A stretch of 64,000 bases of DNA from a virus: IMG/VR virus record IMGVR_UViG_3300021090_000013, positions 1-64,000 of that record. The stretch is one strand, 5' to 3'. Of the stretch, positions 103 to 60,373 are shown piece after piece. The translations under genes and the position numbers were made by a program. How positions within the stretch are numbered: the stretch's first letter is position 1; each line of letters opens with the position of its first letter. The notes under the pieces were generated by a model. That model did no database searches, was not told the origin of the DNA, and worked only from the letters and a program-made list of their open reading frames with translations.

Positions 103-519
103 ATGGCGCGCCCACGCAAGCCGACCGCCCTACGAGTGCTGACCGGAAAAGCCGGCCATCGCCCGCTCCCGAAGAATGAGCCGAAGCCTGAGTTAGGCGC
201 CGTGCCGCCGCCGTGGATGACGGCGCCGGGGGCCGTGGCTGAGTGGGACAGGATGGCTCCGCGCCTGCTCAAGCTGGGGCTGCTCACAGAGGTGGATGGC
301 GAGGCGCTGGCGTTGCTCTGCGGCCACCTGGCAGACGCTGGCGAGCAAATGCGCATGGCCCGGCCGGTGGACCCGCGGTTGACATCGGAGATCCGTCAGT
401 TCCTCGGGCAGTTCGGGCTCACGCCAGCATCACGGGCCAAGGTGACGAGCGCGAATCCGAAGGAAGACGTTGACCCGTTCGCAGCATGGAAGGTCCCGAG
501 TGGCGGCAAGAAAGGCTGA
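103..519 (+). CDS. terS: terminase small subunit, P27 family
   Basis: N-terminal RPRKPTALRVLTGKAGHRPL and C-terminal FGLTPASRAKV are typical of P27-family TerS; lies directly before TerL. Confidence 0.9.
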   Translation: MARPRKPTALRVLTGKAGHRPLPKNEPKPELGAVPPPWMTAPGAVAEWDRMAPRLLKLGLLTEVDGEALALLCGHLADAGEQMRMARPVDPRLTSEIRQFLGQFGLTPASRAKVTSANPKEDVDPFAAWKVPSGGKKG

Positions 520-2263
520 CCAGACTACCGCCTACGCCCGTGGCGTGATCGCCGGGAAGATCCCCGCTGGCCGGTTGGTGATCCTCGCCTGCAAGCGCCA
601 CATCCGCGACCTCAAGGACGGGAAGCGGCGAGGGCTCGTGTGGGACCCTGGGGCGGCAGAGCGTGACATCGGGTTCTTTGCGAAGCTCTGTCACTACAAG
701 GGAGAGTGGGCGGGGAAGCCGCTGATCCTCTCTCCGTGGCAAGCGTTCATTGTCGGAAGCATCTTCGGCTGGAAGAACCGAGACGGGCTGCGCCGTTTCC
801 GAGAAGCCTATGAGGAGGTGCCGCGCAAGAACGGTAAGAGCACGAAGGACGCCGGCTTGGGAATCCGCCTCGCCTTCTTCGACGGCGAGCAAGGGGCCGA
901 GTGCTACTGCGCCGCGACCAAGAAGGACCAGGCGCGGATCATCTGGGGAGACGCGAAGCAGATGGTGCTTCGCACCCCGGCCCTTCGGAAGATGCTGCGC
1001 GTGTTCACCGGCAACCTATCATCCGAGGCGCTTGCGTCGAAGCTCGAGCCGCTTGGGGCCGACGAGGACACCATGGACGGTCTCAACGTGCATGCTGCGA
1101 TGATTGACGAGCTGCACGCGCACAAGACCTCGGGCGTTGTGGACGTGCTCAAGACCGCGACCGGATCGAGGCGCCAGCCACTCATCAAGTACGTCACGAC
1201 GGCCGGATACAACCGGGAGTCCATCTGTTGGAAGCTCCGAGACTACTCGGTCAAGGTGCTCGAGGGCTCGGTGGTAGATGACACCTTCTTTGCCTACATC
1301 GCCTGTGCCGACGAGGGCGACGACTACCGCGACCCGAAGACGTGGGCGAAAGCGAATCCAAATCTAGATGTATCCGTGAGCCGCACCGACCTCGCGCGCA
1401 AGGCAAAGCAGGCGGAGCACATGCCGGCGGCCCTCAACGCATTCTTGAGGCTGCACCTGAACGTCTGGACCGAACAAGCCGACCGCTGGGTAGATATGGA
1501 GGTATGGGACGGTTGCTCGGGTGCGGTCGACGAAGCCGCGCTCAGGGATCGTCACGCAGAGTGCTTCGGTGGCCTCGACATGGCGTCGGTGCGCGACCTG
1601 TCGGCGTTCGCTCTTGTCTTCCCCGACGAGGATGACGGCTTTGACGTGATCTGGAAGTTTTGGATTCCTCGCGAGAGCCTCGAACCAGGCAAGACTCACC
1701 GTAGCGAGCGGGAGAGATTACTCCTCCTGGGATGGGCGACACAGGGGTTCATCACGGTAACCGAGGGCAACGTCACCGACTACGACCTTGTCGAGCGCGA
1801 CATTTTCGAGGCGGCCGAGAGCTACCGAGTTCTAGAGATCGCGCATGACCGCTGGAACATCACTCAGCTCATCACGCATCTGCAAAACGAGTTCGGCACC
1901 GACGAGGATTCAGTGCCTCGCGTCATCGGGTTCGGTCAGGGCTTCCAGAGCATGAGCGCGCCGACCAAGGAGCTGGAGAAGCTACTCCTCGGTCGAAAGA
2001 TCCGGCACGGCGGGAACCCGGTAGCTCGATGGATGGCGGCCAACGTGGTCGTGCGCCAAGACCCGGCTGGCAACATGAAGCCCGACAAGGAGCGCTCAGC
2101 CGAGAAGATCGACGGCATCGTGGCGCTGGTGATGGCCCTGGGTCGTGCGATCACGCGGCCCACTGATGGCGAATCGGTCTATGACCAGCGCTTCACAGCG
2201 AATCGGGACCTCACGGAGAAAGGAAAGCAGGGGCCACCGCAGCCCCTAATCGACGCATGGTGA
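500..2263 (+). CDS. terL: terminase large subunit (Terminase_1 type)
   Basis: Walker A VPRKNGKS, Walker B MIDELHAH, TTAG, nuclease motifs GLDMAS and KIDGIVALVMA; GTG start at 500 inferred. Confidence 0.95.
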   Translation: MAARKADQTTAYARGVIAGKIPAGRLVILACKRHIRDLKDGKRRGLVWDPGAAERDIGFFAKLCHYKGEWAGKPLILSPWQAFIVGSIFGWKNRDGLRRFREAYEEVPRKNGKSTKDAGLGIRLAFFDGEQGAECYCAATKKDQARIIWGDAKQMVLRTPALRKMLRVFTGNLSSEALASKLEPLGADEDTMDGLNVHAAMIDELHAHKTSGVVDVLKTATGSRRQPLIKYVTTAGYNRESICWKLRDYSVKVLEGSVVDDTFFAYIACADEGDDYRDPKTWAKANPNLDVSVSRTDLARKAKQAEHMPAALNAFLRLHLNVWTEQADRWVDMEVWDGCSGAVDEAALRDRHAECFGGLDMASVRDLSAFALVFPDEDDGFDVIWKFWIPRESLEPGKTHRSERERLLLLGWATQGFITVTEGNVTDYDLVERDIFEAAESYRVLEIAHDRWNITQLITHLQNEFGTDEDSVPRVIGFGQGFQSMSAPTKELEKLLLGRKIRHGGNPVARWMAANVVVRQDPAGNMKPDKERSAEKIDGIVALVMALGRAITRPTDGESVYDQRFTANRDLTEKGKQGPPQPLIDAW

Positions 2264-2412
2264 GACTCCAAGCCTCGGTTGTCGACCGTCTTGCCGTCCT
2301 CGCCGGTGCGGGGCTCGTCCTCTATGGCGTGTCCATGTGGTCACGACCAGCAGCCGTCATCCTCGCCGGGCTGTTCCTGTTGGCCGGCGCTCTATGGAGG
2401 ACTCGCCAGTGA
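2257..2412 (+). CDS. small two-TM membrane protein between terminase and portal
   Basis: Hand-translated MVRLQASVVDRLAVLAGAGLVLYGVSMWSRPAAVILAGLFLLAGALWRTRQ; overlaps both neighbours; usual position in HK97-like phages; below the ORF-track cutoff. Confidence 0.7.
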   Translation: MVRLQASVVDRLAVLAGAGLVLYGVSMWSRPAAVILAGLFLLAGALWRTRQ

Positions 2413-3986
2413 CCAGCATGGTTTCGTGGCTTCTCGGTGTGCCGAAGGCGGGTGCTCTCGATGCGCTGGATGACCGGTACTATGAGCCGGCGAGTAGCCT
2501 CTCTCGTGCAGGCGTTCGGGTCTCCGCCGATTCGGCGATGAAGTCGTCTGCCGTTTACCGCTGCGTCTCGATCCTCGCGAACGTGCTGGCGATGTTTCCG
2601 AAGGCAATGTATGAGCACCTTGACCGAGGGCGTCGGCCGGCTCCAGACCATCCGCTCGACGAGATCATCAGCTTCCGCCCGAATCGCCGCCAGAACGCTT
2701 TCGTGTTCTGGCGCCAGGTCTGCTACCACCTGATGCTGCGCCAGAACGCGTTCGTCCAGATCATCCCCGGCGCCTCTGGCCGTGGTTGGGTTGGCGGGCT
2801 CGTCCCCCTGCACCCGGATCGCATCCGGGGACCAGAGGAGCTTCCAGACGGCTCCTTACGCTACCTATACCAGCGCCCGAACGGAGGACCTGCGGTTCCC
2901 ATGATCGGCGGAATCGACATCTGGCACCTACACGGCCTGAGTTCAGACGGGCTCAAGGGCCTGTCGATGCTCGACGTAGCCGACGACTCTATCGGTCTGT
3001 CCCTTGCGGCTGAGCGTCACGCGGCTCGGTTCTTCCAGCGCGGGGTGAAGCCGACCGGGATCTTGCAGCACGAGAAGACGCTCAAGGCCGAGACCGCGCG
3101 GGAGATGAGCGAATCGTTCGGGCGCGTCTACGGCGGCGAAGAGGGGACCGGTAAGGTTCCGGTCCTCTGGGAGGGGATGAAGTTCAACCCCATCTCGATG
3201 ACCTTGAAAGACGCCGAGTTCTTGGACTCGCGGAAGTTCTCGGTGTCTGAGATCGCTCGGTGGTTCGGCGTGCCGCCCCACATGGTTGGCGATGTCGAGC
3301 GCAGCACGTCTTGGGGAACCGGGATTGAGCAACAGGGGCTCCACTTCCTGATCTACTCTCTCCTGCCCTGGATCGAGTTGATCGAGCAGTCCATCCGGTT
3401 CACGCTCGTGGTGCAGCCCGACAAGTTCTACCCGAAGTTCAACGTCAACGCGATCTTGCGGATGGACGCGAAGGCGCAGGCCGACGTGTTCGCGATCTTG
3501 GTCGACAAGGGCATCCTCAACCCTAACGAGTGCCGCGAGCTGCTGGAGCGCAACCCGCGCAAGGGCGGCGACGAGTACGCGAAGCCAGGCGCCGCGCAAC
3601 CGCCTCCGGCGCCGTCCTTGCCCGATGCGATGCGTCCAATGGAGCCGGACTCTGACGAGGTTGACGCAGCCCGGGCCCTCGCAACCGCCAGCGCGATCGC
3701 GCACGCGCGGGCCCTGGAGCTACTCGACGAGGAGCGCCAGTCCCTCTCCCGGCTCGCCAAGGAGCACGCCAAGCAGGGCGAGGCGTTCCGGGCGGCAGCC
3801 GCTCGCTTCTACGGCCACTTTTCGGGCCGCGTCTCGGTGGCTATGGCCTGCGACAAGACCTCGGCCAAGGGCTGGTGTGAGACCAGGCGCGGCCTTGTGC
3901 TCTCGGATGGGATTGCCGGACTGACGGACCAGAACCAGGCGGCAGCGGCGCTCGTCGCCATTGCCCTGAATGGAGGGCCCGCATGA
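2409..3986 (+). CDS. portal protein, HK97 family
   Basis: SAVYRCVSILA, LVPLHPDRI, DAEFLDSRKFSVSEIARWFGVPPH, GILNPNECR motifs; has a C-terminal extension. Confidence 0.95.
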   Translation: MTSMVSWLLGVPKAGALDALDDRYYEPASSLSRAGVRVSADSAMKSSAVYRCVSILANVLAMFPKAMYEHLDRGRRPAPDHPLDEIISFRPNRRQNAFVFWRQVCYHLMLRQNAFVQIIPGASGRGWVGGLVPLHPDRIRGPEELPDGSLRYLYQRPNGGPAVPMIGGIDIWHLHGLSSDGLKGLSMLDVADDSIGLSLAAERHAARFFQRGVKPTGILQHEKTLKAETAREMSESFGRVYGGEEGTGKVPVLWEGMKFNPISMTLKDAEFLDSRKFSVSEIARWFGVPPHMVGDVERSTSWGTGIEQQGLHFLIYSLLPWIELIEQSIRFTLVVQPDKFYPKFNVNAILRMDAKAQADVFAILVDKGILNPNECRELLERNPRKGGDEYAKPGAAQPPPAPSLPDAMRPMEPDSDEVDAARALATASAIAHARALELLDEERQSLSRLAKEHAKQGEAFRAAAARFYGHFSGRVSVAMACDKTSAKGWCETRRGLVLSDGIAGLTDQNQAAAALVAIALNGGPA

Positions 3987-4276
3987 ACGAGCGGATGACT
4001 GAGGCAGAGCTGTTGGAGGCCGAAGAGATAGTCAGGGCGGCCGAACATGATGCCGCTCCTCTCCGTCTGGAAATCCTTGATGTTGCAAAACAAGCGGTCG
4101 CCGAGGTGCGCCGGCTGCGGGGCCTACTCAAGCCTTTCTCCGGAAACGTAGGCTATGACACCTGCTGCATTGGCTGCGGCGACGCCATGCATGCAATGGG
4201 CGAGCCGGGACATAGCCCTGAGTGCCCATGGATACCACTGGAAGCCGAGGCGAGCGCGATCCGCGCTGAGGAGTGA
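3983..4276 (+). CDS. hypothetical protein
   Basis: ATGA overlap with portal stop; CCIGC and HSPECPW motifs. Confidence 0.55.
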   Translation: MNERMTEAELLEAEEIVRAAEHDAAPLRLEILDVAKQAVAEVRRLRGLLKPFSGNVGYDTCCIGCGDAMHAMGEPGHSPECPWIPLEAEASAIRAEE

Positions 4277-4280
4277 CGCC

Positions 4281-5258
4281 ATGTTGAGCCTGCTTCATGC
4301 CGTAGCTGGTCGCCCCTGGGCGATCCAGGCCGAGATAGCGTTCCACATCCGGGGCTTGCTGGCCAAGGAGGGGATCGCCGGCCTACGCCATCTCGCGGAG
4401 CTCAAGAGCGGCGTCCACGCCTTCGACGAGGACCGACCGCGCGCCGCCAGTCGCCAAGCGTTCATGGACACGGGCGGCACCGTGGCGGTCATCCCGGTCA
4501 TCGGTACGCTGACCCAGCGCGGAGACATGATCGGCAGCGCCCAGACGCGGTCGACCGCCGAGATCGCTGCCGAGGTGCGGGCGGCCGCTGCCGAGCCATC
4601 AGTCGACGGCATCTTGCTTGAGATCGACTCCCCGGGCGGGGAAGTGTTCGGCATCCCCGAAGCGTGGGCTTCGATACGCGAGTCCGGCCGGATGAAGCCG
4701 GTCGTAGCGCACGCGAACAGCATCGCGGCTTCAGCGGCTCTCTACCTGGCGAGCGCGGCCAATGAGTTCTGGATCACGCCCAGCGGCGAGGCGGGTAGCG
4801 TGGGCGTCTACGCGCTCCACGTGGACATGGGCAAGGCTCTGGAGAGCATGGGTGAAGCCTGGGACTTCATCGTGGCCTCCAAGAGCCCCTACAAGATCGA
4901 GGGCAACCCATCAGGCCCGCTCACCGACGAAGCCAGGGGATACCTCCAGCGGAACATCGACCGCTATATGGGCATGTTCCTGCGCGACCTCGCCCGCGGC
5001 CGCGGCGTGTCGGAGAAGCGCGTTGAAGCGGACTTCGGGGGCGGCCGGATGCTGAATCCAGCCCAGGCTGTCGCTGTGGGGATGGCTGATGGGGTGGCCA
5101 GCTTCGATCAAGCCGTCAGGCGATCGGCAGACCTCGGGCGCCATCGCGGAGGCGGCCCCCGGGCGGACCTTGCAGGGCCAGAACCGGTCGCGGAAGATCC
5201 TGCCGCTCTTGCGGCCTGGGCAGCTCTTGCCGGCGTGAAATTGGAGGGACTCGAATGA
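4281..5258 (+). CDS. S49 family prohead protease
   Basis: LEIDSPGGEV, AASAALYLASAA, AGSVGVY motifs; between portal and capsid. Confidence 0.9.
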   Translation: MLSLLHAVAGRPWAIQAEIAFHIRGLLAKEGIAGLRHLAELKSGVHAFDEDRPRAASRQAFMDTGGTVAVIPVIGTLTQRGDMIGSAQTRSTAEIAAEVRAAAAEPSVDGILLEIDSPGGEVFGIPEAWASIRESGRMKPVVAHANSIAASAALYLASAANEFWITPSGEAGSVGVYALHVDMGKALESMGEAWDFIVASKSPYKIEGNPSGPLTDEARGYLQRNIDRYMGMFLRDLARGRGVSEKRVEADFGGGRMLNPAQAVAVGMADGVASFDQAVRRSADLGRHRGGGPRADLAGPEPVAEDPAALAAWAALAGVKLEGLE

Positions 5259-5647
5259 GCGTACTTGTGGCAACCCCGCTTGAGGCCGCCGGTGTCAATC
5301 TCTGCACGACGCTGACCGGTAACGTCGACTCCACGAACACGATGGACCGCGGCTACACCCTCGGGGGCCCGTCCCTCCTGCGGGTAACCTCGACCATCGG
5401 GGCGGGGCCGACCGTGAAGTTCGACATCCAGGGCTCGATGGATGGTGTCGTGTTCTTCAACGTCCCCTATAGCCTGATCGCCACGCCGGAGACCTGGGTG
5501 GTGGCGCAGATCACGATCACGACGGCGGTCACTGCCTACTACGTCCTCAAGGGCAATGTGCCCTGGAAGTACCTCAAGACAGTGATGAGCCTGAACACGA
5601 ACGTGACTCTCACCGTGGACGCCTGGCCCACGTATTACAAGGGCTAA
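5255..5647 (+). CDS. hypothetical head-region protein (beta-rich)
   Basis: Coupled to protease stop; phage-like codon usage. Confidence 0.65.
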   Translation: MSVLVATPLEAAGVNLCTTLTGNVDSTNTMDRGYTLGGPSLLRVTSTIGAGPTVKFDIQGSMDGVVFFNVPYSLIATPETWVVAQITITTAVTAYYVLKGNVPWKYLKTVMSLNTNVTLTVDAWPTYYKG

Positions 5648-5659
5648 GAATGGGGGGGC

Positions 5660-5679
5660 TTGACAGCCTATGGTATAAT
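5660..5679 (+). promoter_or_regulatory. putative late promoter: TTGACA-N8-TATAAT (extended -10 TGnTATAAT)
   Basis: TTGACA gcctatgg TATAAT in the intergenic gap before the capsid gene. Confidence 0.6.
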
Positions 5680-5757
5680 CCTCAGTGACGTAGAAAGGGC
5701 TCCGGTCGCCTCAGCCTTCGGGCCTCTCCGACCGACCATCGCAGCACCGCGCCACTG

Positions 5758-5819
5758 GCGCCCCTGCTGTTTCGGCATCTGACGTTTTTCAGGTGCCGGC
5801 CAGGGGCGCTTTTGCTTTT
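5758..5819 (+). terminator. intrinsic terminator-like hairpin in capsid gene leader
   Basis: GCGCCCCTG/CAGGGGCGC outer stem and CGGCATCTGA/TCAGGTGCCG inner stem, followed by TTTTGCTTTT. Confidence 0.65.
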
Positions 5820-5844
5820 CCGGGCCGGCGCATCAGGAGCTGCG

Positions 5845-7227
5845 ATGGAACGACTAAAGGAACTCGAAGTCGATCGCGAGGATCGGCGCGCCCAGGTGAA
5901 GGAGATCCTGACCGCGGCCGGCAAGGACAAGCGGACCTTGTCCGAGGACGAGCGGCAGAAGGCCGCGACCCTCACCAAGGAACTCGAGCAGATCGAAGCG
6001 ACGATCAAGCTCGAGGAGCAGACGCTCGACTGGAACCGGACCTCAGCCGTTGCGGTCGATCGCCCCGCCGGCGAGGTGACCAAGCCGTTCAAGCCCTACG
6101 CTGCGGGTCTCGGGGGTGCCAAGAACCCCTGGGGAGATTGCAGCAACGAACGCGGGCTGCAGATGGCATTCGGCAGCTTCTTGCAGGCCGTGGCGTCGTG
6201 CGCCAAGGGTGGCCCATCAGACCCCCGCCTCTCCATGATGCCGATGGCTGCCGCCAGCGGCCTCAACACGTCGGTGGGCTCCGAGGGCGGCTTCCTCGTC
6301 CGCACCGACTTCTCGACTGCGCTACTGGCGCGGGCGATGGGGGAATCAGTCCTAGCCAATCGCTGCACCACGATCGACATAGGGGACGGTTCGGATGGCA
6401 TCGAACTGCCCTACATCGACGAGACCAGCCGGGCGACCGGCTCTCGCTGGGGCGGCGTCCAGGTCTACCGGCGCGCCGAGGCGGACACCGTCACCGCGTC
6501 CAAGCCGAAGCTCGGAATGCTGGAGATTCGGCTGGAAGACCTGATGGGAATCTGCTACGCGACCGACCGCTCCCTGCGTGACGCGACCAGCCTCGGTCAG
6601 ATCATCCAGACGGCGTTCTCGTCCGAGTTCGCCTTCCGCGTCGACGACGAGATCATCCGTGGTTCTGGCGCCGGGCAGTGCCAGGGCCTGCTGTCCTCGG
6701 GGGCCCTCGTGAGCCAGGCAAAGGAAACGGTCCCCGCCCAGCTCGCGGACACGTTCATCACCGAGAACGCGCTGAAGATGCGTTCGAGGATGCCCGCCAG
6801 GCTCCGCAGCGACGGCGCATGGTACATCAACATGGAGTTGGAACCGCAACTCCCGATGATGACCGTCAAGGTTCTCAACGTGGCTGGCACCGAGTGGGTC
6901 GGCGGAGGCGCTCCGATCTACATGCCGGCGAACGGTCTCGCTGGCCAGCAGCACGACACGCTCTTTGGGAAGCCGATCATTCCCATCGAGCAGTGCGCGG
7001 CCATCGGAGACAAGGGTGACGTCTTCTTCCTCGCCCTCCGCGAATATCTGCTCATCCGCAAGGGTGCGCTGGAGACGGCGGAATCCATCCACGTGCGCTT
7101 TCTCTACGGGGAGAACACGTTCCGCTTCACCTATCGAATCAACGGGGCTCCGGCCTGGAAGACCAGCCTGGCTCCCTACAAGGGCACGCTGGCCCTCAGC
7201 CCCTTCGTCACACTCGACGCGCGGTAA
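5845..7227 (+). CDS. major capsid protein, HK97 fold with N-terminal delta domain
   Basis: AGGAG RBS; coiled-coil N-terminus; EGGFLV, TLFGKPII, and SPFVTL at the C-terminus. Confidence 0.95.
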   Translation: MERLKELEVDREDRRAQVKEILTAAGKDKRTLSEDERQKAATLTKELEQIEATIKLEEQTLDWNRTSAVAVDRPAGEVTKPFKPYAAGLGGAKNPWGDCSNERGLQMAFGSFLQAVASCAKGGPSDPRLSMMPMAAASGLNTSVGSEGGFLVRTDFSTALLARAMGESVLANRCTTIDIGDGSDGIELPYIDETSRATGSRWGGVQVYRRAEADTVTASKPKLGMLEIRLEDLMGICYATDRSLRDATSLGQIIQTAFSSEFAFRVDDEIIRGSGAGQCQGLLSSGALVSQAKETVPAQLADTFITENALKMRSRMPARLRSDGAWYINMELEPQLPMMTVKVLNVAGTEWVGGGAPIYMPANGLAGQQHDTLFGKPIIPIEQCAAIGDKGDVFFLALREYLLIRKGALETAESIHVRFLYGENTFRFTYRINGAPAWKTSLAPYKGTLALSPFVTLDAR

Positions 7228-7239
7228 GGAGCAAAGGTC

Positions 7240-7728
7240 ATGTCCCATCTCTGCATTCCACAGGACGCCGTACCGTTCTCGCTCCTCCCGCCGGCAGCCG
7301 ATGCCGCTGGGCGGACCTCGGTCTACAAGAGCCTCAAGGGCGCTGTCAAGGCGTGGATCGTCGTCTATATCAACCAGGGGGCCGCGAACACCGTCCTCCT
7401 GAGCCCGATGCAGGCGCTGAACGTGTCCGCCGGTTCAGCCATTGCCTGCCGGGCCTGCCGCATCTACTCGAAGCTCACTGCGGCGACGGTGGACTTCACG
7501 CAGGACACCGAGGCCACCACCTACACCACGGACGCCGGAACCGACGCCAAGGTGATCATCTTCGAGATCGACCCGAACAAGAGCCTGACCCCCGAACACG
7601 CCACCGGCGTCTACGACTGCGTCGCTGTGTCGACTGGAGCCAGCGCCGCCGCCAACATCACCTCGGCGATGCTCTGGATTCAGCCGAAGCACCAGGGCAC
7701 CGGGATCACCAACGTTCTGGCTGACTAG
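7240..7728 (+). CDS. putative capsid-associated protein
   Basis: Strong RBS; immediately after the capsid gene; Ala/Thr beta-rich. Confidence 0.6.
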   Translation: MSHLCIPQDAVPFSLLPPAADAAGRTSVYKSLKGAVKAWIVVYINQGAANTVLLSPMQALNVSAGSAIACRACRIYSKLTAATVDFTQDTEATTYTTDAGTDAKVIIFEIDPNKSLTPEHATGVYDCVAVSTGASAAANITSAMLWIQPKHQGTGITNVLAD

Positions 7729-7807
7729 GCGGGGGTTCGTGACAAGGCGCTCCCGCGCGTGGGTTAAGGCTCTCGCGCGGGGGCGGCATCGCAAGAGGAG
7801 ATGAGCG

Positions 7808-8032
7808 ATGAAGGTTCGGATTCTGAGCGGTAGTCAGGCCGGTGCCGTCGTCGAGCAAGAGCAGACCGAGGCCGAGTCCAACATCTCGACCGGATTCGCC
7901 GAGGCCGTGACGGACGGCTTCGTCGAGTGGGGACCTGGCCCTGGGCTCCCGGTGCTGCTCCATCAGGACCAGGTCATTCCAGCCGAAGCAGAGCCCGAGA
8001 AGAAGCCCGAGAAGGCGAAGCACGGACGGTAG
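7808..8032 (+). CDS. hypothetical protein
   Basis: GAGGAG RBS; small gene at the usual position before the connector. Confidence 0.55.
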   Translation: MKVRILSGSQAGAVVEQEQTEAESNISTGFAEAVTDGFVEWGPGPGLPVLLHQDQVIPAEAEPEKKPEKAKHGR

Positions 8033-8034
8033 CT

Positions 8035-9738: not shown

Positions 9739-9741
9739 CAC

Positions 9742-51548: not shown

Positions 51549-51553
51549 GGCAC

Positions 51554-51940
51554 ATGACGGCATTGAACGAAGGGCAGTACACCGGCGAGTTCCTCATCGA
51601 GGAGCCCGCCCCGAGGATCAGCCGGGAGACCGTCACCGTGACGGTCGATACGGCCACCAAGCTGGAGCCGGGCCACGTCATGGCCCAGCTCTCGGCGGAC
51701 AGCAAGTTCGTCGAGTACGACAACTCCGGCACCGACGGCTCCGAGGAGGCAGCGGGGATCCTCTACAACGAGTGCGACAACTCGGCCGGCGAGGCCCCGG
51801 CAGACTTTACAGCGGTCGTCGTGGTCCGTCTCGCGGCCGTCCGCAAGGCCGACCTGCAGTGGAACAGCGGGGTCGACGCGAGCGGCAAGACGGCGGCGTA
51901 CGCCGATCTCAAGGCCCTGATGATCTTGGCGCTCGACTAA
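51554..51940 (+). CDS. head decoration protein (lambda D-like)
   Basis: GEFLI.E...ISRE, DGSEEAAGILY; between protease and capsid. Confidence 0.85.
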   Translation: MTALNEGQYTGEFLIEEPAPRISRETVTVTVDTATKLEPGHVMAQLSADSKFVEYDNSGTDGSEEAAGILYNECDNSAGEAPADFTAVVVVRLAAVRKADLQWNSGVDASGKTAAYADLKALMILALD

Positions 51941-51976
51941 GGGCGCCGCCCCCAAAAGGAGAAGGAGAACAAGCCA

Positions 51977-52975: not shown

Positions 52976-52982
52976 GCCCACC

Positions 52983-53309
52983 GTGGGCGACCTGAGGCCG
53001 GAGTTCGAAGCCGCGTCGGCTCCATTCGGGGTCGACGCGGTGGTGACTCCGCCCGGCGGATCCCCGGTGGAGACGAGAGTCATCTGGCTACCGCCGATCA
53101 CCGTGGAGCACCCGACCGGCACGGAGCTGCGCCGTGCAGAGCCCAAACGCGTTCTTGCGCTTCCCCTCGACGGCCTCGGCGAGGTGCCGCGCGGGACGAT
53201 CGTGACGGCCCCGGAGTATGAAGGGGCCGAAGCGAGCGACTGGAAGATCGACGAAGCCGAGCGCGTCGACTTCGACCACTACCGGGCCACAGTCTTGCCG
53301 GCGGGGTAG
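52983..53309 (+). CDS. head-tail joining protein (FII-like)
   Basis: Synteny; FGVDAVVTPPGG, RGTIV pattern. Confidence 0.65.
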   Translation: MGDLRPEFEAASAPFGVDAVVTPPGGSPVETRVIWLPPITVEHPTGTELRRAEPKRVLALPLDGLGEVPRGTIVTAPEYEGAEASDWKIDEAERVDFDHYRATVLPAG

Positions 53310-53312
53310 GAC

Positions 53313-53762
53313 ATGCCCAGTACACGCGAAGCGGCGATCAGCGAGCTGAGGGACCGGCTTGAGGCCATCGCCCAAGCCAACGGCTTCGGCACCGACGCCG
53401 GGGCGCTGATCTTCCTCGGCGAGTCCCCGACCCTGGGGCCCGACGATCCGACCGCGGCGATCGCCATCGACGTCCAGGAGGACATCCCCAGCTTTCAGGG
53501 CGAGCACGTAGTAGTCACCGTCCCCGTCGACGTGCAGGCCCTGGTGAAGGCCGACGCTGACGACCCCTGGATGACGGTCGAGGCCATCGTCACGGACATC
53601 AAGACCGCCGTCGAGACCGATCGCGACCTGGGCGGCACCTTGATCGCTCGCGGCCTCATGCGGGGGACCGTGCGCCCGCTCGATCGCGAGCCCGGCAGCC
53701 AGTACGTGGGGGCCGCGGTGCAGTACCGGCTCCTCATGAAAGAGAGCTGGGGGAGCCCGTAA
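53313..53762 (+). CDS. tail terminator (U-like)
   Basis: STRE..I...RL.AI...NGF.TDAG pattern; synteny. Confidence 0.7.
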   Translation: MPSTREAAISELRDRLEAIAQANGFGTDAGALIFLGESPTLGPDDPTAAIAIDVQEDIPSFQGEHVVVTVPVDVQALVKADADDPWMTVEAIVTDIKTAVETDRDLGGTLIARGLMRGTVRPLDREPGSQYVGAAVQYRLLMKESWGSP

Positions 53763-54299
53763 ATGGTCACCATCCGCCTCGACAACGCAGACATCAAGGC
53801 TGGGCTCGCGTCCATGCGCGCGAAGTTTCCCCAGGCTGTCCGGCGTGCGCTCAAGCGCGCCGGCACCAGCGGCCGGGCCGAAATGGCGAGAGTGATCGCC
53901 GCGGACACCGGGCTCCCATCCACTCGCGTGAAGAGGGAGATCACCGTCAGGAGCGACGACGTCTCGATGGCGCTGACGACGGCGGGCTTCCGGATTCCGC
54001 TACTCGACTTCCAAGCGCGGGGGCCGGAGCCGTCCCGTGGGCGCGGCCGGGGCGTGTCGTATCGGGCCAAGTCCGGCCGCGTCCAGCTCCCGCACGCGTT
54101 CATCGCGACGATGGCCAGCGGCCACCGGGGAGTGTTCCAGCGGTCGGAGCTTTCGCTCTCCCACTCGTCCATCAGAGAACTGAAGGGGCCATCCATCGCG
54201 CACGTCTTCGAGGTCCTCGCCCCGCAAGGAATCGCAGCCGCCAGCGAGTCGTTCATGAAGAACGTCAAGAGCGAAATCAAATTCGCCATGACCAGGTAA
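53763..54299 (+). CDS. minor tail protein Z-like
   Basis: Basic protein; RRALKR, AFIATMASGHRGVFQR, I.EL.GPS. Confidence 0.85.
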   Translation: MVTIRLDNADIKAGLASMRAKFPQAVRRALKRAGTSGRAEMARVIAADTGLPSTRVKREITVRSDDVSMALTTAGFRIPLLDFQARGPEPSRGRGRGVSYRAKSGRVQLPHAFIATMASGHRGVFQRSELSLSHSSIRELKGPSIAHVFEVLAPQGIAAASESFMKNVKSEIKFAMTR

Positions 54300-54310
54300 G
54301 GAGGAAGCCC

Positions 54311-54919
54311 GTGCCTCAACCTTTCGAGATCGTTGCTCAGCCCTTCACTTTGTGGGTGGGCGACGTCGGCGACGTCTTCCCCACGATCGACGAGGATCCC
54401 GGCGCGGGGTGGACCAAGATCGGAACCTCCGGCGACCTCAACTACACCGAGGATGGCGTGACGATCACGCACAACCAGACGGTGGAGAAGTTCCGCGCCC
54501 TCGGCAGCACCGGTCCGCGCAAGGCGTTCCGCACGGAAGAGGAGCTGCACATCACCCTCTCTGTCGCTGACGTCTCGCTCGAGCAGTACGCCCAGGCCCT
54601 GAACGACAACACCGTCACCACCGAGCCGCCAGACACCGGGACGGCGGGTTCCAAGAAGCTCGGCCTCTCCCGCGGCCTGAGCGTGGCGCAGCATGCGCTC
54701 CTCATCCGCGGCGCCGCTGCGTCTCCCTACGGCGAGGGGTGGGTCGCGCAGTACGAGGTCCCGGTCGTCGTCCAGGTCGGTGAGCCAGAGGTCGTCTACG
54801 TCAAGGGCGAGCCCGCCGCGCTGGCGCTGGAGTTCGAGGCGCTCGAGGACCCGGACGCCGTGAGCGATGACGAGCGCTTCGGCCGCCTGATCGTGCAGAA
54901 CACCGAGCCCGGGACGTAG
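54311..54919 (+). CDS. major tail tube protein (module 2)
   Basis: AAGGAGG RBS; W..IG...YTEDGVTI, acidic; synteny. Confidence 0.8.
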   Translation: MPQPFEIVAQPFTLWVGDVGDVFPTIDEDPGAGWTKIGTSGDLNYTEDGVTITHNQTVEKFRALGSTGPRKAFRTEEELHITLSVADVSLEQYAQALNDNTVTTEPPDTGTAGSKKLGLSRGLSVAQHALLIRGAAASPYGEGWVAQYEVPVVVQVGEPEVVYVKGEPAALALEFEALEDPDAVSDDERFGRLIVQNTEPGT

Positions 54920-55092
54920 GTGGGGGGCTTGCCCGGCGATCAGGTGGACGCGTTGCGTCGCGAGATCGCGTCGCACAAGTCCGCGATCCGCTGGCACCGG
55001 TCGGCCCTCCAACGTGCCGCCGAAGCGCTGGCCAGGCTCCAGCTCAGCGGCACCGGCATCAAACCAGTCTTCAAAGGCGAAGGGAAAACCCC

Positions 55093-55476
55093 ATGGCCAA
55101 TCTCCTCAACCTCGACACCCTGACCGAACGGAACACCGTCACGGTCGACGGCGTGCCATACGACCTCATCAATCCAGGCCAACTCTCGATCCTGGACCAA
55201 CACCGCGTTTTGAAGTGGGGAGCACGCGTCCAGGAGCTCCACGCAACCGTGGAGAACCTCTCCGATGCGGCGATCACGGAGATGGGGGAACTCCTGGACC
55301 GCTTCTGCCGGCTCGTGCTGCCGGCGCCTCCAGAGGTCCACGACAGGGTCTCCGACAACCAACGGCTGAAGCTGATGTCGGTTTTTACCGAACTCCTGCG
55401 GGGGGAGACTCCGGCGCCCGCGGGGGCAAGCGCCGCGCCGGTCGCCGACGAGACGTCGACTGGGGAGAGCAAATAG
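55093..55476 (+). CDS. tail assembly chaperone (module 2)
   Basis: LNLDTL...VTVDGVPY; position before tape measure. Confidence 0.75.
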   Translation: MANLLNLDTLTERNTVTVDGVPYDLINPGQLSILDQHRVLKWGARVQELHATVENLSDAAITEMGELLDRFCRLVLPAPPEVHDRVSDNQRLKLMSVFTELLRGETPAPAGASAAPVADETSTGESK

Positions 55477-55748
55477 CGCGCCTGGTGCGCTTCTACGGGG
55501 GAAATCCGATGACCTGGCTGGCCGAGACACCGACGTGCGTGGTCAACGCGCACCTTGCGATGCTCGGCCGGCTCACGGCCGAGGACCGACTTGCCGCCGC
55601 CATGGCCTCCGGCGCGGGAAGGTTCATGAAGCCGGCGCCCATCCGCAGCCAGATCGCAGCATGGAACAGGGCCGCGCAACGCGGCGACGGCAGCAAGGGC
55701 GGCTCTGGCGTCCCCCGGGGCACGGGCATCAAGGTCGTGAAGCGGTGA
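55380..55748 (+). CDS. tail assembly chaperone -1 frameshift extension
   Basis: Open -1 frame (LVRFYGGNP..W); candidate slip site G GTT TTT at 55380-55386, or the G-run near 55400. Confidence 0.55.
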   Translation, partial: GFYRTPAGGDSGARGGKRRAGRRRDVDWGEQIARLVRFYGGNPMTWLAETPTCVVNAHLAMLGRLTAEDRLAAAMASGAGRFMKPAPIRSQIAAWNRAAQRGDGSKGGSGVPRGTGIKVVKR

Positions 55749-56356
55749 AGGTCTGCAAGAAACGCGGCCATCAATATTCCGCAGAGCGCAGGCAGTGTCC
55801 TGTTTGCCGGCTACTTTCTCGGCGCACCTCAGAAGCCGGTAGGCGCGAGCAGATCCGCGTCCAGAAACGGACATGGGATGCCAATCGTGAGAAAAGGAAA
55901 GCCTCTGCTCGCAGGAATTACCTCTCCCATCGCGAGGCTTGGGCGGAAAGGACTCGCAACCGGAGATCGGCCAACCTGGAAGCTTATCTGGCAAATTGCC
56001 GCTCCTATCAACAAGCCCATCGAGAACGCCACAACGAGCACGTGGCCAAATACCAGAAGGCCCATCCTGAAAAGCACGCCGAGCGCGAGGCGCGACGGCG
56101 CGCCCGAAAGCGCGCCTCGTTGATCGAACCATTCTCGTGGGTCGAGTGGTGCGCAGTGGTTGACTTCTACGGTGGGCTTTGTGCCTACTGCGCCCAACGT
56201 CCGTGGGAGCACAAAGAGCACGTCGTGCCGCTAGCTCGTGGCGGTGCGCATGCCCTCTGGAACCTCGTCCCATCATGCAAGCGTTGCAACTACCGAAAAC
56301 ACACTAAGACCTGGGCGCCGCTCAAGCGCCATCCAGCGATGGCGGAGGCTGCGTAA
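55745..56356 (+). CDS. HNH endonuclease
   Basis: CAYC...EHVVPLARGGAH...NLVPSCKRCN..K; lower GC. Confidence 0.88.
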   Translation: MKVCKKRGHQYSAERRQCPVCRLLSRRTSEAGRREQIRVQKRTWDANREKRKASARRNYLSHREAWAERTRNRRSANLEAYLANCRSYQQAHRERHNEHVAKYQKAHPEKHAEREARRRARKRASLIEPFSWVEWCAVVDFYGGLCAYCAQRPWEHKEHVVPLARGGAHALWNLVPSCKRCNYRKHTKTWAPLKRHPAMAEAA

Positions 56357-56357
56357 G

Positions 56358-58781
56358 ATGTCCGAACGGCTCGCCCGCGGCGTCATCGAGATCGCGATCG
56401 ACGACAAGGACGTCCGGGCCGGCCTCGCCCGCGTGACCGGCGCCTCCGACAGCGCGGCGCACTCGGTCGCCGGCATCAGCGACGGGATGAGGACCTCCTT
56501 CGGGGCGGTGGCCACCGTCCTGGGCGGAGCGGTCACAGCCATCGCGGGAATCACCACCGGAATCGTGGCCCTGGGCATCCACGGGTCTGACGTTGCCGAC
56601 GTCCAGGAAGCCTTCTCCGGGCTCTCGGAGGGGATGGGCTCCACCGCAGACGTGATGCTGGGCGTGCTTCAGGAAGGGACCCAGGGCACCATCTCGAACT
56701 TCGACCTCATGAAGATGTCGAATGCGGCCCTCGGAAGCGGGCTCATCACCTCTTCCGAGAGCATGGCCACGCTGGCGGCTGGGGCGAAGCTGCTCGCAGA
56801 TAGCACCGGAGGCGATACCGCCGAAGCCTTCGACACCTTGACCACGGCGATGGCAAGTGGCCGCACGGCCGCCCTCAAGCACCTGGGCATCTTCGTCGAC
56901 AGCAAGGTGGCGGTCGAGGACTACCGCAAGTCCACGGGCCACCTCACCGGCGAGCTGACTGACGGCCAGCGTGCGACGGCGCTCAGCGAGGCCGCCCTGC
57001 GGGCGCTCCGAAAGCAGGTCGACGAGAACGGGATCTCCGTAAAGGACTTCTCCGACAACGTCGCCCGCGTCAAGGTCGCCGTCCAAAACTGGACCGACAG
57101 CCTGGCCGTCGCCATTGCCAAGTCCCCAGTCTTGTCCGCCGGGATGGGGGTGCTGGGCACGGCCATCACGAACGCCTTCGGCTCGAACCAGCAAGCGCAA
57201 ACGCAAGCCCTCGCGCGTCATGTCGGGAGCTTCGCCATCGGCATAGTGAACACGGGCATCGTCCTTGGCACGTTCGCCTCGGTAGCCAATGCCGTCTTCT
57301 CCGGGGTCCGGGTCGTCGTGTTGTCCGTCCTCGAAACCTTCGTGGTCCTCGCCACCGGTATCGTCGGAATCATCAATGAGCTTGTCCACGGGGCCAGCAC
57401 AATCCCGGGGTTCAGCCTTGCCCTGGGCGGAGTGGAGGCATCGACTACCGCGGCGACACTCGCGCTGGATGAGATGGCGCACGGGCTGACCGAGCAGATC
57501 GGAGAGGCGGCGAAGGGAGTCGCCGGCAACAACGAGCTCGGCCAGAAGATCACCGCGACCACCGGCACCTTCATGCTCATGCGGGACGCGATGGTCAAGG
57601 CCCAGACCGAGCAGCTCAAGGTGACCGCGACGGCCCCGCACCCGGCGATCAAGAAGGTGGGCGACGAGGCCGGGCTCACGGCCGCGCAGATGCTGGCGCT
57701 GGCCGAGGCCGAGCGCACCGCCACAGATCGCGCCTTTGCGATGAACCAAACGCTTGAGGCCAAGGGACAGGAGCTTCAAGACAACCTGACGGCGTCGACT
57801 CTTAGCGGCGTGGATGCGCGGCTCTTTCAGATCAATCGAGAGCGCGAAGCCGCCCTGGCGAGCCTGGCGCAGTACGCGCGCTCCTACCCGGTGTGGTACG
57901 CGGCGCAAGTCCTCGCGGTGCAACTGACCTACGGCAACATGACGGCGGCCGCGCAGGGCCACTTCACCACCGTGAAACAGGCTGCCGAGGCCGCCGGTTT
58001 CGCGTTGCGATCAACACTCCAGGCCACGTCCGCCAACGCCACGACCCTCTACGCCGACATGCTCGCAAGTGGGCAATTCACCTACGCCCAGCTCGTCGCG
58101 GCCGGCCAGGCATCAGCCAATGCCCAGCAGTTGGCTAACGGCGGGACGGCGCTGACTCATGATGAGCAATTGCGAGAGACGGCCCGAATCGCGGCCGAGG
58201 CATACGCAGCGATCACGAGAGCTGCTGTAGCCTCGGACGCCGAGATCGAGCGGGCCCACAGGGCATCGGCCGACGCCCAAAAGGCGGTGGACGAGGCCGT
58301 GCTCAGGGCCCGACTCGGCCATGCAGCAATGGCCCTCGACGCCGCCTCCTCAATGATCGGCTCCATCTTCTCGCACAACAAGTCGACGGCGATCGCGATG
58401 GCCTTGATCGACACCGCGTCGGCCATCGTCAAAGCCATCGCTGCGACCCCCTTGCCCTGGGGCCTGATCCCGGCCGCGGCGGCCGCTGCCATGGGCGCCG
58501 CCCAGATCGCGACGATTCGGAACACGAACCCGGGCCACGCCCTAGGCACGCCGCGGCTCGACTTCGCCGACTTCGGCTCGGAGTCCTTCCAGCCGCTGCA
58601 CAACCAGGAGGCCGTCATCCCCCGTGGCGGCGGACACCTGTTGGCCGGCGAGATCGCTGACTCCATGGGTGGTAGCGCCGAGCTGGGGGCCAAGCTCGAT
58701 CGAATCGCGGACCTCCTCGAACGACAGCCAGCCGAGATGCGCAAGGCCTACCGCAACGCGTTCCTGCTGGACACGGCCTGA
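56358..58781 (+). CDS. tail tape measure protein (module 2)
   Basis: 807 aa, Ala-rich; ALKHLGI; C-terminal DFG...LH..EAVIP like tape measure 1. Confidence 0.9.
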   Translation: MSERLARGVIEIAIDDKDVRAGLARVTGASDSAAHSVAGISDGMRTSFGAVATVLGGAVTAIAGITTGIVALGIHGSDVADVQEAFSGLSEGMGSTADVMLGVLQEGTQGTISNFDLMKMSNAALGSGLITSSESMATLAAGAKLLADSTGGDTAEAFDTLTTAMASGRTAALKHLGIFVDSKVAVEDYRKSTGHLTGELTDGQRATALSEAALRALRKQVDENGISVKDFSDNVARVKVAVQNWTDSLAVAIAKSPVLSAGMGVLGTAITNAFGSNQQAQTQALARHVGSFAIGIVNTGIVLGTFASVANAVFSGVRVVVLSVLETFVVLATGIVGIINELVHGASTIPGFSLALGGVEASTTAATLALDEMAHGLTEQIGEAAKGVAGNNELGQKITATTGTFMLMRDAMVKAQTEQLKVTATAPHPAIKKVGDEAGLTAAQMLALAEAERTATDRAFAMNQTLEAKGQELQDNLTASTLSGVDARLFQINREREAALASLAQYARSYPVWYAAQVLAVQLTYGNMTAAAQGHFTTVKQAAEAAGFALRSTLQATSANATTLYADMLASGQFTYAQLVAAGQASANAQQLANGGTALTHDEQLRETARIAAEAYAAITRAAVASDAEIERAHRASADAQKAVDEAVLRARLGHAAMALDAASSMIGSIFSHNKSTAIAMALIDTASAIVKAIAATPLPWGLIPAAAAAAMGAAQIATIRNTNPGHALGTPRLDFADFGSESFQPLHNQEAVIPRGGGHLLAGEIADSMGGSAELGAKLDRIADLLERQPAEMRKAYRNAFLLDTA

Positions 58782-60373
58782 TGGGCGAGACCGTCACGAT
58801 CGTTCCGCGCGTGGAGATGATGTTCGGCTCGGACTGGGTTGACGTGTCCGACGACGTCGTGTCCCAGGTCGAGGCCGCGTGGGGCATCCACGGCGCCAAT
58901 CCGAAGCAGCGCATCGCGGACCCTGGCACCATGCGTTTCCAGCTCGACAACTCCAGCCAGAACAGCGGTGGCGTGCGCGGCTATTACACCATCGGGCATC
59001 CCGACGCCCGCGCGGGGTTCGACGTCAAGACGCCGGTCCGATTCGTGCTGCACAACGACCTGCTCGGGGACAAGGTGCGGTGGGTGGGCACCATCGAGGG
59101 CGCGAAGCCGGGCGCCGGAGTCAAGGACCAAACGGTCGACGTGTCCTGCGTCGACTGGCTGGAGGAGGCCGCCCGGGCGAAGATCAGCGGTCTGGGCGTC
59201 CAGGTCGACATCCAATCCGACGTCCTCTTCCAGCTCCTCATCGACGCGGCGGACACGCCTCCGCCAGGCGGCACGCTGGTCGGGACCGGTTCCGACGTCT
59301 ACGAATACGCCCTCGACAACGTCCAGGACGAGACGACGACACTGATCGAGGCCTTGAACAAGCTCCTGCTTAGCGAGTTCGGGCTTTCCTACGTGTCGGC
59401 CGGCGTTGGGGTGTTCGAGGGCCGGCGGCTTCGCAGCGGCGGTGGCGGCGTGCAGCTCGCGCTGGACGAGGACGAGAACCTCATCACTCTGTCCACGGTG
59501 AACGGGAGAGACGAGGTAATCAACCACGTCCTGGTGTCCGTCCACCCGCGCCGCACGGACCCTGTCTATGCGGTCCTCTTCAACCTCGGCTCCTCTCTCG
59601 ATATCGTGCGCGGGACGGAGATCACAATCAGTTGTCCCTACCGCGACCAGAACCAGCAGGCCCAGCGCGTGGGCGGCCTCGACATGCAGGACCCGGATGC
59701 CGGCGAGGGCGACTACTCCTTCAACGCCGCCGAGGACGGGTCGGGGAAGGACCTCACGGAGCAACTGACCGTGACGGCGGTCTTCGGCGGGAACTCCGCA
59801 GCGGTGACCATCGCCAACAACGGGCCCAACGACGGCTTCGTCCCTCCGAACGGGCTGAAGCTGCGCGGGATCGGCCTATACGACTTCGAGCCTGTCATCG
59901 CGGACCGTTCGGACGTCGACAGCATCCTGGCCTACGGAGAGTGCCCGCTGGGCTATGACATGCCCTACCAGAGTTCGCCGACGAACGCGGGCGACCTGGC
60001 GCTCTTCATCCTCGCGCTGAACAAGACGGCTCGCGTGCGCGCCCAGAAGGTGACGTTCATCGCCAACTGGAGCTACACGGAGTGCGAGCAGGCGTTCAAC
60101 CTCGAGATCTCCAACCGCGTGTCTGTGACCTCGGCGCCCTCAGGGCTCGCCGCCGAGCCGTACTTCGTCAACGGCTTCCGGATGGTCGCGCACATGAGCG
60201 GCCTGGTGACCGTGACGTTAGACCTGGCGCCGACGGACACAGCCGAGTATTGGCAGCTCGAGGTGGACGGCAGGACCGAGCTCGACGAGACGACGGTGCT
60301 CGGCTACGGGCTGTTCACCGCCGGCTGGATCCTCAACAGCTCAGAGCTTGGGTCTCAGACGTTTTTGAACTGA
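58781..60373 (+). CDS. tail tip/hub protein
   Basis: Follows tape measure; homologous to the C-terminal part of 15232..17850. Confidence 0.8.
   Translation: MGETVTIVPRVEMMFGSDWVDVSDDVVSQVEAAWGIHGANPKQRIADPGTMRFQLDNSSQNSGGVRGYYTIGHPDARAGFDVKTPVRFVLHNDLLGDKVRWVGTIEGAKPGAGVKDQTVDVSCVDWLEEAARAKISGLGVQVDIQSDVLFQLLIDAADTPPPGGTLVGTGSDVYEYALDNVQDETTTLIEALNKLLLSEFGLSYVSAGVGVFEGRRLRSGGGGVQLALDEDENLITLSTVNGRDEVINHVLVSVHPRRTDPVYAVLFNLGSSLDIVRGTEITISCPYRDQNQQAQRVGGLDMQDPDAGEGDYSFNAAEDGSGKDLTEQLTVTAVFGGNSAAVTIANNGPNDGFVPPNGLKLRGIGLYDFEPVIADRSDVDSILAYGECPLGYDMPYQSSPTNAGDLALFILALNKTARVRAQKVTFIANWSYTECEQAFNLEISNRVSVTSAPSGLAAEPYFVNGFRMVAHMSGLVTVTLDLAPTDTAEYWQLEVDGRTELDETTVLGYGLFTAGWILNSSELGSQTFLN

Follow-up and report, generated by a model that had tools for sequence, protein, structure and literature searches.

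The metagenomic virus record IMGVR_UViG_3300021090_000013 is linear and 73,294 bp long, and the window, i.e., the whole stretch of DNA analyzed here, is its first 64 kb (positions 1–64000). All genes described below lie on the plus strand. The left contig end (1–102), just upstream of the first TerS gene and unique in the record, leads into an intact HK97-type virion module (103–19356). Its packaging and head genes (103–7227, Pfam) encode TerS (103–519, PF05119), TerL (470–2263, PF03354 and PF20441), an HK97-family portal (2337–3986, PF04860, E 3.5e-97), an S49 protease (4155–5258, PF01343) and an HK97-fold major capsid protein (5812–7227, PF05065), and all members of the HK97-type order TerL, portal, protease, capsid (470–7227) score above the Pfam cut-offs. 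The connector and tail genes, small virion proteins included (7240–19356; PF05521, PF04883, PF11367, PF16461; PHROGs 442, 2854 and 10330), specify adaptor, head completion, gp10-like and tail completion proteins (7927–9738), a tail tube (10272–10709), a chaperone pair (10713–11386), a 1079-aa tape measure (11383–14622) and tip proteins up to 19356, one of them 888 aa long. The start of an early region comes next (19380–22384), with genes, again by Pfam and PHROGs, for a cro-like HTH protein (20138–20356), a ParB-like protein (20561–21079), an HTH_17 protein (21080–21391) and an RNA ligase (21370–21972), and a further ORF (21969–22388). The genome to which the arm 1–22411 belongs is hereafter called phage A.

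From 22385 to 35242 runs a backbone of recombination, replication and lysis genes, encoding a RecE/YqaJ-like exonuclease, a phrog_3657 protein, a RecF/SbcC-like ATPase, a C5 DNA methylase, a HerA/FtsK-like ATPase, a RuvC-like resolvase and a glucosaminidase endolysin. The endolysin (34733–35242; Pfam, PHROGs) is present once, in agreement with the initial annotation, which had noted a single lysis cassette. Eight late ORFs close the backbone (35513–41313; PF13426, PF23140, PF23148), including those for a PAS-domain protein, a 597-aa protein, a GP4 podophage fibre gp80-like protein and an adaptor gp77-like protein, and none of the eight matched a PHROG. Searches of the virus collection returned no close relatives of the 597-aa protein or the exonuclease, nor any exact match to 49 bases taken from the start of the backbone, and we give these results little weight. 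As read from the sequence, the interval 41314–41549 is intergenic and joins the end of the backbone to a second TerS gene, and it may well hold the packaging site of the phage whose head genes follow, hereafter phage B.

An intact lambda-type virion module extends from 41550 to 60373 and on. The packaging and head genes of phage B (41550–53309; PF05876 and PF20454, PF05136, PF00574, PF02924, PF03864; PHROGs 57, 21 and 314) encode a TerS-like protein (41550–42125, phrog_57), a gpA terminase (41885–44023, PF05876 and PF20454), a lambda-family portal (within 47825–50203; PF05136, E 5.7e-109), a ClpP-type (gpC-like) protease (50082–51548, PF00574), a gpD decoration protein (51554–51940, PF02924), a gpE capsid protein (51977–52975, PF03864, E 2.4e-99) and an FII-like protein within the same interval; the head set from gpA to gpE (41885–52975) lies above the Pfam cut-offs throughout. 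Glycosyltransferase-like and homing-endonuclease genes (Pfam/PHROGs) form a 3.4-kb insert between terminase and portal. The tail and tip region (53313–64000, on to about 65774 in the record; PF06763, PF14279, PF04055; PHROGs 27 and 117) opens with a Z-like protein from 53313 and continues with a major tail protein (54311–54919), a chaperone and an HNH insert, an 847-aa tape measure (56238–58781) and a 530-aa tip protein (58781–60373), these assignments being by Pfam/PHROGs, followed by radical SAM and methyltransferase-like genes (Pfam).

Pfam and PHROGs thus bear out the initial annotation in its central observation of two full virion modules, HK97-type at 103–19356 and lambda-type from 41550 to 60373 and on. 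The homology it had seen between the tips is likewise real, the 530-aa protein aligning with the C-terminal half of its 888-aa counterpart (30% identity, E 1e-42), whereas its claim of homologous tape measure C-termini shrinks to a single motif of 26 residues (pairwise E 0.005). The tail lengths it derived from tape measures of 1079 and 847 aa, at 0.15 nm per residue (the lambda rule), are right as arithmetic. Both phages are uncultured and high in GC (65–70%), and probably infect Proteobacteria; no third of the window has near-identical DNA among cultured phages, and the terminases share just 30–45% identity with any cultured phage terminase. Composition does not discriminate among arm A, backbone and phage B: GC is 0.654, 0.682 and 0.671, respectively, pooled GC3 is 0.81–0.82 (Mann-Whitney p > 0.78 for all pairs), and tetranucleotide correlations are 0.975–0.986.

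The initial annotation had counted only one early region, a count that does not hold for the whole record. Self-comparison of the record revealed that 69098–73294, outside the window, is collinear with 20089–22538, the early-region start of phage A (19380–22384) having its counterpart in 69098–73141. Nucleotide identity is 89% between 20089–20431 and 69098–69452, 83% between 21080–21391 and 71076–71387, and 98% between 22386–22538 and 73142–73294, and the protein order (cro-like HTH, ParB-like, HTH_17, small ORFs, RecE-like exonuclease) is the same at both starts. A second complete early region downstream is what the initial annotation itself had said would reduce the record to two separate phages, and the start of one is present at 69.1–73.3 kb.

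The collinearity ends in an exact repeat. The last 127 bases of the record (73168–73294) are identical at 127/127 positions to 22412–22538, on the plus strand at the point of entry into the backbone; the base just before the repeat differs between the two sites (22411 versus 73167), and these 127 bases are the longest exact repeat in the record. The largest k-mer size available in SPAdes and metaSPAdes is 127. We infer both the assembler and the k used for this record, taking the length of the terminal repeat to be that k. Since the last 127 bases are those of an internal site, the contig path re-enters sequence already used and then stops. At the other end of the record, positions 1–127 contain no repeat of at least 18 bases found anywhere else in it, so no link from the backbone end to the phage A start is visible. 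Such a link would be needed for a closed phage A circle sharing exactly the same backbone end. An 11-mer common to 3–13 and 41440–41450 was considered as a shared end and rejected, its score being reached by 25 of 300 shuffles, i.e., at chance level. Scanning metagenomes and genomes with the phage A TerL yielded relatives of at most 78% identity, none of them informative on the sequence upstream of phage A TerS.

The assembled public contigs of sequencing runs (X1–X4) were examined over 22000–41900, with depth available as one figure per contig. Run X1, a freshwater-sediment metagenome, contains 0.99 of the sampled words of the record and is probably its source, so evidence from it is not independent. 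Its 340 contigs on this interval (119 at ≥99% identity, 90 at 95–99% and 131 at 90–95%) represent a swarm of 90–99% variants. One X1 contig starts exactly at 22412, and at a loose end at 22386 the X1 assembly continues with 17 letters that equal the phage B flank at 73125–73141. Both left flanks of the 127-base repeat are thus present in the X1 sample (the record itself having the phage A flank), and, because two left flanks enter the backbone in one sample, at least two backbone copies must exist. Along the backbone, X1 also carries a second allele set at about a quarter to a half of the summed depth (28.1/60.1 at 27083, 30.1/59.8 at 28290 and 31.2/58.9 at 30311), with letters that are those found in X2, a run from another study, in which a contig crosses the A-type junction (22283–22612) with one difference. 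At the far end of the backbone, an X1 contig crosses 40918–41569 into phage B TerS with zero differences.

Depth in the exact X1 contigs is about 51–52 at 22412–24340 and 23–41 beyond, each contig contributing one figure; the summed depth, which also takes in other variants, falls from about 53 to 27–40 past about 38.6 kb, and the all-contig depth at 22227 is 23.5. This pattern would fit a backbone shared over part of its length, a reading that we set aside given that the figures are per contig and other variants are summed in. Apparent back-joints (e.g., 36987 to 23598) were treated as noise, with their short sides and placement at 90% likeness. Runs X2 and X4 have almost no cover on 37.3–41.9 kb, and X3 has none on 40.6–41.9 kb, an observation that carries no proof.

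In our view, the record is probably a compound contig that combines phage A (arm 1–22411) and phage B, a mosaic pair in the manner of lambda and HK97. The assembly path would have the shape of a lasso and lead through the genomes of at least two related siphophages present together in a freshwater-sediment metagenome. Of these, phage A would contribute its HK97-type virion module and the start of its own early region, and phage B (41314–73167) a lambda-type head, a tail of its own and a second early-region start, with a homologous recombination, replication and lysis backbone, beginning at 22412, in both. The assembler would have passed from arm A through the backbone into phage B, met the first 127-mer of the backbone again and stopped, which would leave phage B as a closed circle (22412–73167; 50,756 bp). 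The backbone copy in the record is presumably mostly that of phage B, and phage A's own copy would be seen solely as the variant alleles of the sample; the two genomes are probably separate molecules. What is found where such a contig would leave its marks is a terminal repeat of the presumed length k with a diverging flank, the two flanks together in X1, and relatives that hold one part. Two phages joined, or an assembly chimera, were among the options of the initial annotation, and to that extent it stands; its division into a 41.4-kb phage and a second one behind it fits less well than arm A (1–22411) plus a closed phage B circle (22412–73167). Given a shared backbone, both divisions amount to the same.

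In a rival explanation, conservation at the shared end would be short and limited to the beginning of the exonuclease gene, phage B would have a different early region, 1–41313 would be a complete phage A, and the join at 41.3–41.55 kb would be either chimeric or a true adjacency. Positions 1–41313 do hold every module of a complete phage, and the identity of phage B's backbone copy is visible over 127 bases, up to the record end, anything further lying beyond it. However, a k-mer join at 41.3–41.55 kb also requires phage B to share sequence upstream of its TerS, which would make both backbone ends common to the two phages. With the exact X1 contig across this junction, and with homologues of the backbone's RecE-like exonuclease, ATPase and RuvC accompanying a B-type head in the relative described next, we see a slim chance for this explanation.

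The nearest substantial relative (G001, locus L030) is a virus record of 50,270 bp, rated 91% complete by CheckV, with one virion module. Its B-type TerS, gpA, portal, protease, gpD, gpE, FII and Z are 45–75% identical in amino acids to those of phage B, and it also encodes RecE-like (59%), ATPase (61%) and RuvC (41%) homologues. Its circular gene order matches that of the proposed phage B circle (22412–73167, 50,756 bp), and the two sizes agree within 1%. It differs in that its tube and chaperones, placed after the B-type head genes, resemble those of phage A (39–48%) and not those of phage B, in having no 3.4-kb glycosyltransferase-like/homing-endonuclease insert between terminase and portal, and in its remaining early and late genes, which are without recognizable relationship. 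As a set the relatives are remote, G001 being the only close B-type one and the whole A-type records reaching 38–43% TerL identity. Related complete records span 37–52 kb; of those bounded by direct terminal repeats, two have an A-type terminase (39,050 and 37,339 bp) and one a B-type terminase (49,492 bp).

These relatives bear on the first option of the initial annotation, a single phage genome with two alternative virion types around one early and lysis region. Both modules are apparently intact, in the same orientation, and their tip proteins are homologous, as such a phage would have them. The other terminase family is nevertheless absent from all 10 whole related records, both terminase types or both portal types occur together in 0 of 89 related loci (each extending at most about 10 kb to either side; five contigs are counted twice among them), and a genome of at least 73 kb would exceed the relatives of either head type. 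Nor are both modules accompanied by single-copy early functions, the early-region start being present twice and the backbone, entered from two left flanks in one sample, not being single-copy. We give this option next to no credence and regard a single phage with two kinds of particle as very unlikely.

Physical linkage is harder to separate from the compound contig, and we regard it as unlikely. Here, A and B would lie in tandem in one molecule, each with its own backbone copy, and the assembler would have collapsed the copies; such an arrangement could take the form of tandem prophages, a phage-plasmid co-integrate or a heterologous concatemer. The graph signature, two flanks into one collapsed segment, would be identical to that of two molecules, the zero-difference X1 contig joins the backbone to phage B, ParB-like genes occur in both early regions, and the cro-like regions are 89% identical. 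On the other hand, tyrosine and serine recombinases (PF00589, PF00239) are absent across the 73.3-kb record in searches whose controls responded, confirming the missing integrase of the initial annotation, and no tRNA gene lies within the 64-kb window, no host gene is recognizable among the scanned ORFs (Pfam, PHROGs), and self-comparison of the record detects no direct repeat bracketing either unit; integrase, att repeats and host flanks, the marks of tandem integrated prophages, were thus not found. The linked molecule would measure about 92 kb, far over the 37–52 kb of related complete records, and the many 90–99% variants in X1 suggest a population of genomes. A single replicon of that size, running from arm A through a backbone copy and phage B to a second backbone copy, seems quite improbable. 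Were it real, it could be a double prophage that does not integrate, or else a phage-plasmid co-integrate carrying two ParB-like genes; either of the unrelated terminases could then excise and package its own unit, and one cell line could give rise to two particle types with related tail tips.

A compound contig has precedents. Chimeric contigs from co-existing mosaic phages are described for de Bruijn-graph metagenome assemblies by Roux et al. 2017 (PMC5610896) and in the Phables study (Mallawaarachchi et al. 2023, PMC10563150), the latter noting that the unitigs common to mosaic phage variants are left unresolved by assemblers. The present record resembles these cases (PMC5610896, PMC10563150) in its near-identical stretches between co-sampled genomes, its one path through a common segment, its k-length exact terminal repeat of an internal site and its variant alleles along the shared part; it differs from them in that the two genomes are distinguished by whole non-homologous head modules, as opposed to strain-level variation, and in its lasso form (arm plus closed circle), as opposed to a simple end-to-end join. 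Despite its CheckV rating of 100% complete and its filing as a linear virus, it would be wrong to list the record as one 73-kb phage equipped with two capsid systems. Its practical value is that of a clean, checkable case of a compound record in a virus catalogue, recognizable from an internal site that recurs exactly, over one k length, at the contig end and from a gene block whose start is present twice.

Among lambdoid phages, mosaicism is exemplified by lambda and HK97, which have common early, recombination and lysis functions and unrelated head gene sets, an HK97-type capsid and protease versus gpA, a lambda-type portal, a gpC-like protease, gpD and gpE, with tail parts that are partly related. 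Phages A and B likewise combine the same backbone with unrelated head modules and partly related tails, while differing in being uncultured, high in GC, far from cultured phage terminases and without a detected integrase. The two-capsid claim mostly dissolves as biology, and what is left is modest but sound: co-occurring sediment phages with a common backbone and related tail tips carry non-homologous heads, and G001, with its B-type head and A-type tube, is a third relative. This is module exchange as known from lambdoid phages, within one habitat.

The virus record is a single contig of 73,294 bases, of which the window covers the opening 64,000, and is filed as linear with a CheckV completeness of 100% and a GC content of 0.63–0.71 along its length; no tRNA genes were found in the 64,000-base window, nor any near-identical relatives of the record among cultured phages. 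A freshwater-sediment metagenome run (X1) contains 0.99 of the words sampled from positions 36600–46500 and is probably its source, which makes the record a metagenome-assembled sequence rather than an isolate genome.

As the initial annotation held, two virion modules are present and both look intact. The first, HK97-type and attributed here to phage A, comprises TerS (103–519), TerL (470–2263), an HK97-family portal (2337–3986), an S49 protease (4155–5258), a PF05065 capsid (5812–7227), connector genes for adaptor, head completion, gp10-like and tail completion proteins, a lambda-like tube (10272–10709) and a chaperone pair (10713–11386); it runs to 19356 and also includes a tape measure of 1079 aa, a tip protein of 888 aa and small virion proteins. 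The second, lambda-type and attributed to phage B, comprises a TerS-like protein (41550–42125), gpA terminase (41885–44023), a lambda-family portal (within 47825–50203), a ClpP-type protease (50082–51548), gpD (51554–51940), gpE (51977–52975), FII-like and Z-like proteins, a major tail protein (54311–54919), a tape measure of 847 aa and a tip protein of 530 aa. As proposed, the two tip proteins are homologous (30% identity, 491 aligned columns, E 1e-42), and a small virion protein is common to both modules (18231–18686 versus 65253–65774, 46% identity); the likeness claimed for the tape-measure C-termini comes down to one 26-residue C-terminal motif (pairwise E 0.005), with nothing beyond it. 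One endolysin (34733–35242) was recovered, and a search of the record for tyrosine and serine recombinases found none, in keeping with the reported lack of an integrase.

Phage B also carries several inserted or accessory genes. A block of about 3.4 kb (43932–48045) separating its terminase from its portal is missing in the related virus record G001, and encodes two glycosyltransferase-like paralogues (44713–45888 and 46691–47308, 48% amino-acid identity to each other) with a NUMOD3 homing-endonuclease gene (45885–46727) between them. Three further HNH endonuclease genes lie at 55535–56356, 64526–65275 (minus strand) and 68243–68677 (minus strand), one of them inserted between tail chaperone and tape measure. 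The tail-tip gene run includes a radical SAM protein (61603–62814) with a SPASM-like C-terminal part, whose top matches, each far under its family cut-off, are to peptide maturases, including cyclophane-forming ones; it is followed by a methyltransferase-like protein (62811–64028) and a 173-aa ORF, in a gene group extending to 64546. These three genes are flanked by tip proteins and a virion protein, and an enzyme encoded here may modify a tail or fibre protein.

The report of only one early region does not hold, as a second begins after module 2, in the 9.3 kb past the window; a second early region downstream, the outcome that the initial annotation took to speak against its own reading, is thus present as far as that region's start. 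Comparing the record with itself gave three collinear matches between the regions following the two modules: 20089–20431 versus 69098–69452 (89% nucleotide identity), 21080–21391 versus 71076–71387 (83%) and 22386–22538 versus 73142–73294 (98%). Gene order after both modules is also the same, with a tail-end virion protein, a few minus-strand ORFs, a cro-like HTH (20138–20356 and 69147–69380), a ParB-like protein (20561–21079 and 70192–71079), an HTH_17 protein (86% amino-acid identity between copies), small ORFs and the start of a RecE/YqaJ-like exonuclease (22385 and 73141). The first match spans the cro-like gene together with the sequence upstream of it, with differing flanks, and phages A and B may have regulatory or immunity specificity in common.

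The record closes with an exact repeat of 22412–22538: its final 127 bases (73168–73294) are identical to that segment, and the base ahead of each copy differs (73167 against 22411). No longer exact repeat exists in the record. The largest k of SPAdes and metaSPAdes is 127, and the repeat is exactly how a de Bruijn graph path ends on reaching an already-used vertex. Public X1 contigs, assembled separately from what are probably the same reads with a smaller k, agree with re-entry at 22412: one starts precisely there, and the 17 letters of a loose end at 22386 match the phage B flank (73125–73141). The segment from 22412 therefore has two left neighbours in one sample, and cannot be one genome's single-copy early region. 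These two left flanks contradict a single phage with one early region making two virion types, which we consider very improbable.

Most probably, the record instead joins two genomes into a compound contig, the two having one backbone in common (recombination, replication and lysis genes, 22412 to about 41313): phage A would contribute the arm 1–22411 with the HK97-type head, and phage B the lambda-type head, its circle closed via the backbone. Lambda and HK97 likewise have a common backbone. Published benchmarks report precisely such an assembly failure. Assemblers are unable to resolve the unitigs that mosaic variants have in common (PMC10563150).

Across 22000–41900, 340 X1 contigs were found, 119 at at least 99% identity, 90 at 95–99% and 131 at 90–95%, a spread that is that of a population rather than a clone. 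At many backbone positions a second allele takes a large share of the summed X1 depth (28.1 of 60.1 at 27083, 30.1 of 59.8 at 28290, 31.2 of 58.9 at 30311), and these alleles are the letters present in X2, a run from another study in which a contig crosses the A-type junction (22283–22612) with one difference. We infer a second, slightly diverged backbone copy in the sample, probably that of phage A, in which case the copy in the record would be mostly phage B's. An X1 contig covers 40918–41569 with zero differences, so the step from backbone end to phage B TerS is real at read level. Positions 1–127 are unique in the record, and no link from this backbone end to the phage A start is visible; phage A may end at position 1 as linear DNA, or its backbone end may differ. 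Physical linkage of A and B in one molecule with two backbone copies would give the same graph topology as two separate genomes, but that molecule would measure about 92 kb, no att-like repeats, integrase or host genes accompany the modules, and X1 holds a variant swarm; we regard it as unlikely.

The backbone itself contains a diverged duplication (27471–27721 versus 31544–31791, 71.5% nucleotide identity), the C-terminus of a 209-aa ORF (27111–27740) matching a 92-aa ORF (31529–31807) at 66% amino-acid identity. A 582-aa HerA/FtsK-like ATPase of the early region (29784–31532), with weak PF05872 and DUF87 matches, has as nearest PHROGs family phrog_2666, classed under terminase large subunits, and is distinct from both true terminases. 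Among late genes without known function, a 207-aa protein (37832–38455) has a PAS domain (PF13426) at the 27-bit cut-off. For the final two genes ahead of phage B TerS (40216–41313), the Pfam matches are to families founded on proteins of the Ralstonia podophage GP4, namely its fibre protein gp80 (27.8 bits) and its fibre-tail adaptor gp77 (40 bits). Both virion modules, in contrast, are siphovirus-like (tube and tape measure).

Relatives point the same way. G001, the closest substantial one (50,270 bp, CheckV completeness 91%), resembles phage B in TerS, terminase, portal, protease, gpD, gpE, FII and Z (45–75% amino-acid identity) and phage A in the tube and chaperones that follow these B-type head genes (39–48%; record positions 42382–43500 in terminase orientation), with backbone homologues of the RecE-like protein (59%), ATPase (61%) and RuvC (41%). 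The circular order of these genes is that of the inferred phage B circle (22412–73167, 50,756 bp). Whole A-type records, with phage A-like terminase, lacked a gpA-type terminase (0 of 5), and whole B-type records a PF03354-type one (0 of 5); direct-terminal-repeat records among these ten measure 39,050 and 37,339 bp (A-type) and 49,492 bp (B-type). In a set of 89 loci surrounding relatives of one terminase or the other (five contigs counted twice), not one contained both terminase or both portal types. Cross-hits came down to an HNH gene, the A-type tube in G001 and, at some A-type loci, a ClpP-type protease. This absence of mixed types is supporting rather than decisive evidence, because the A-type relatives are distant.

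The initial observation was thus largely right, while the striking two-virion reading is most probably an assembly artefact. G001 is direct evidence that A and B module sets are exchanged in this phage group, and the biology that remains is ordinary though neat head-module mosaicism in uncultured sediment phages.
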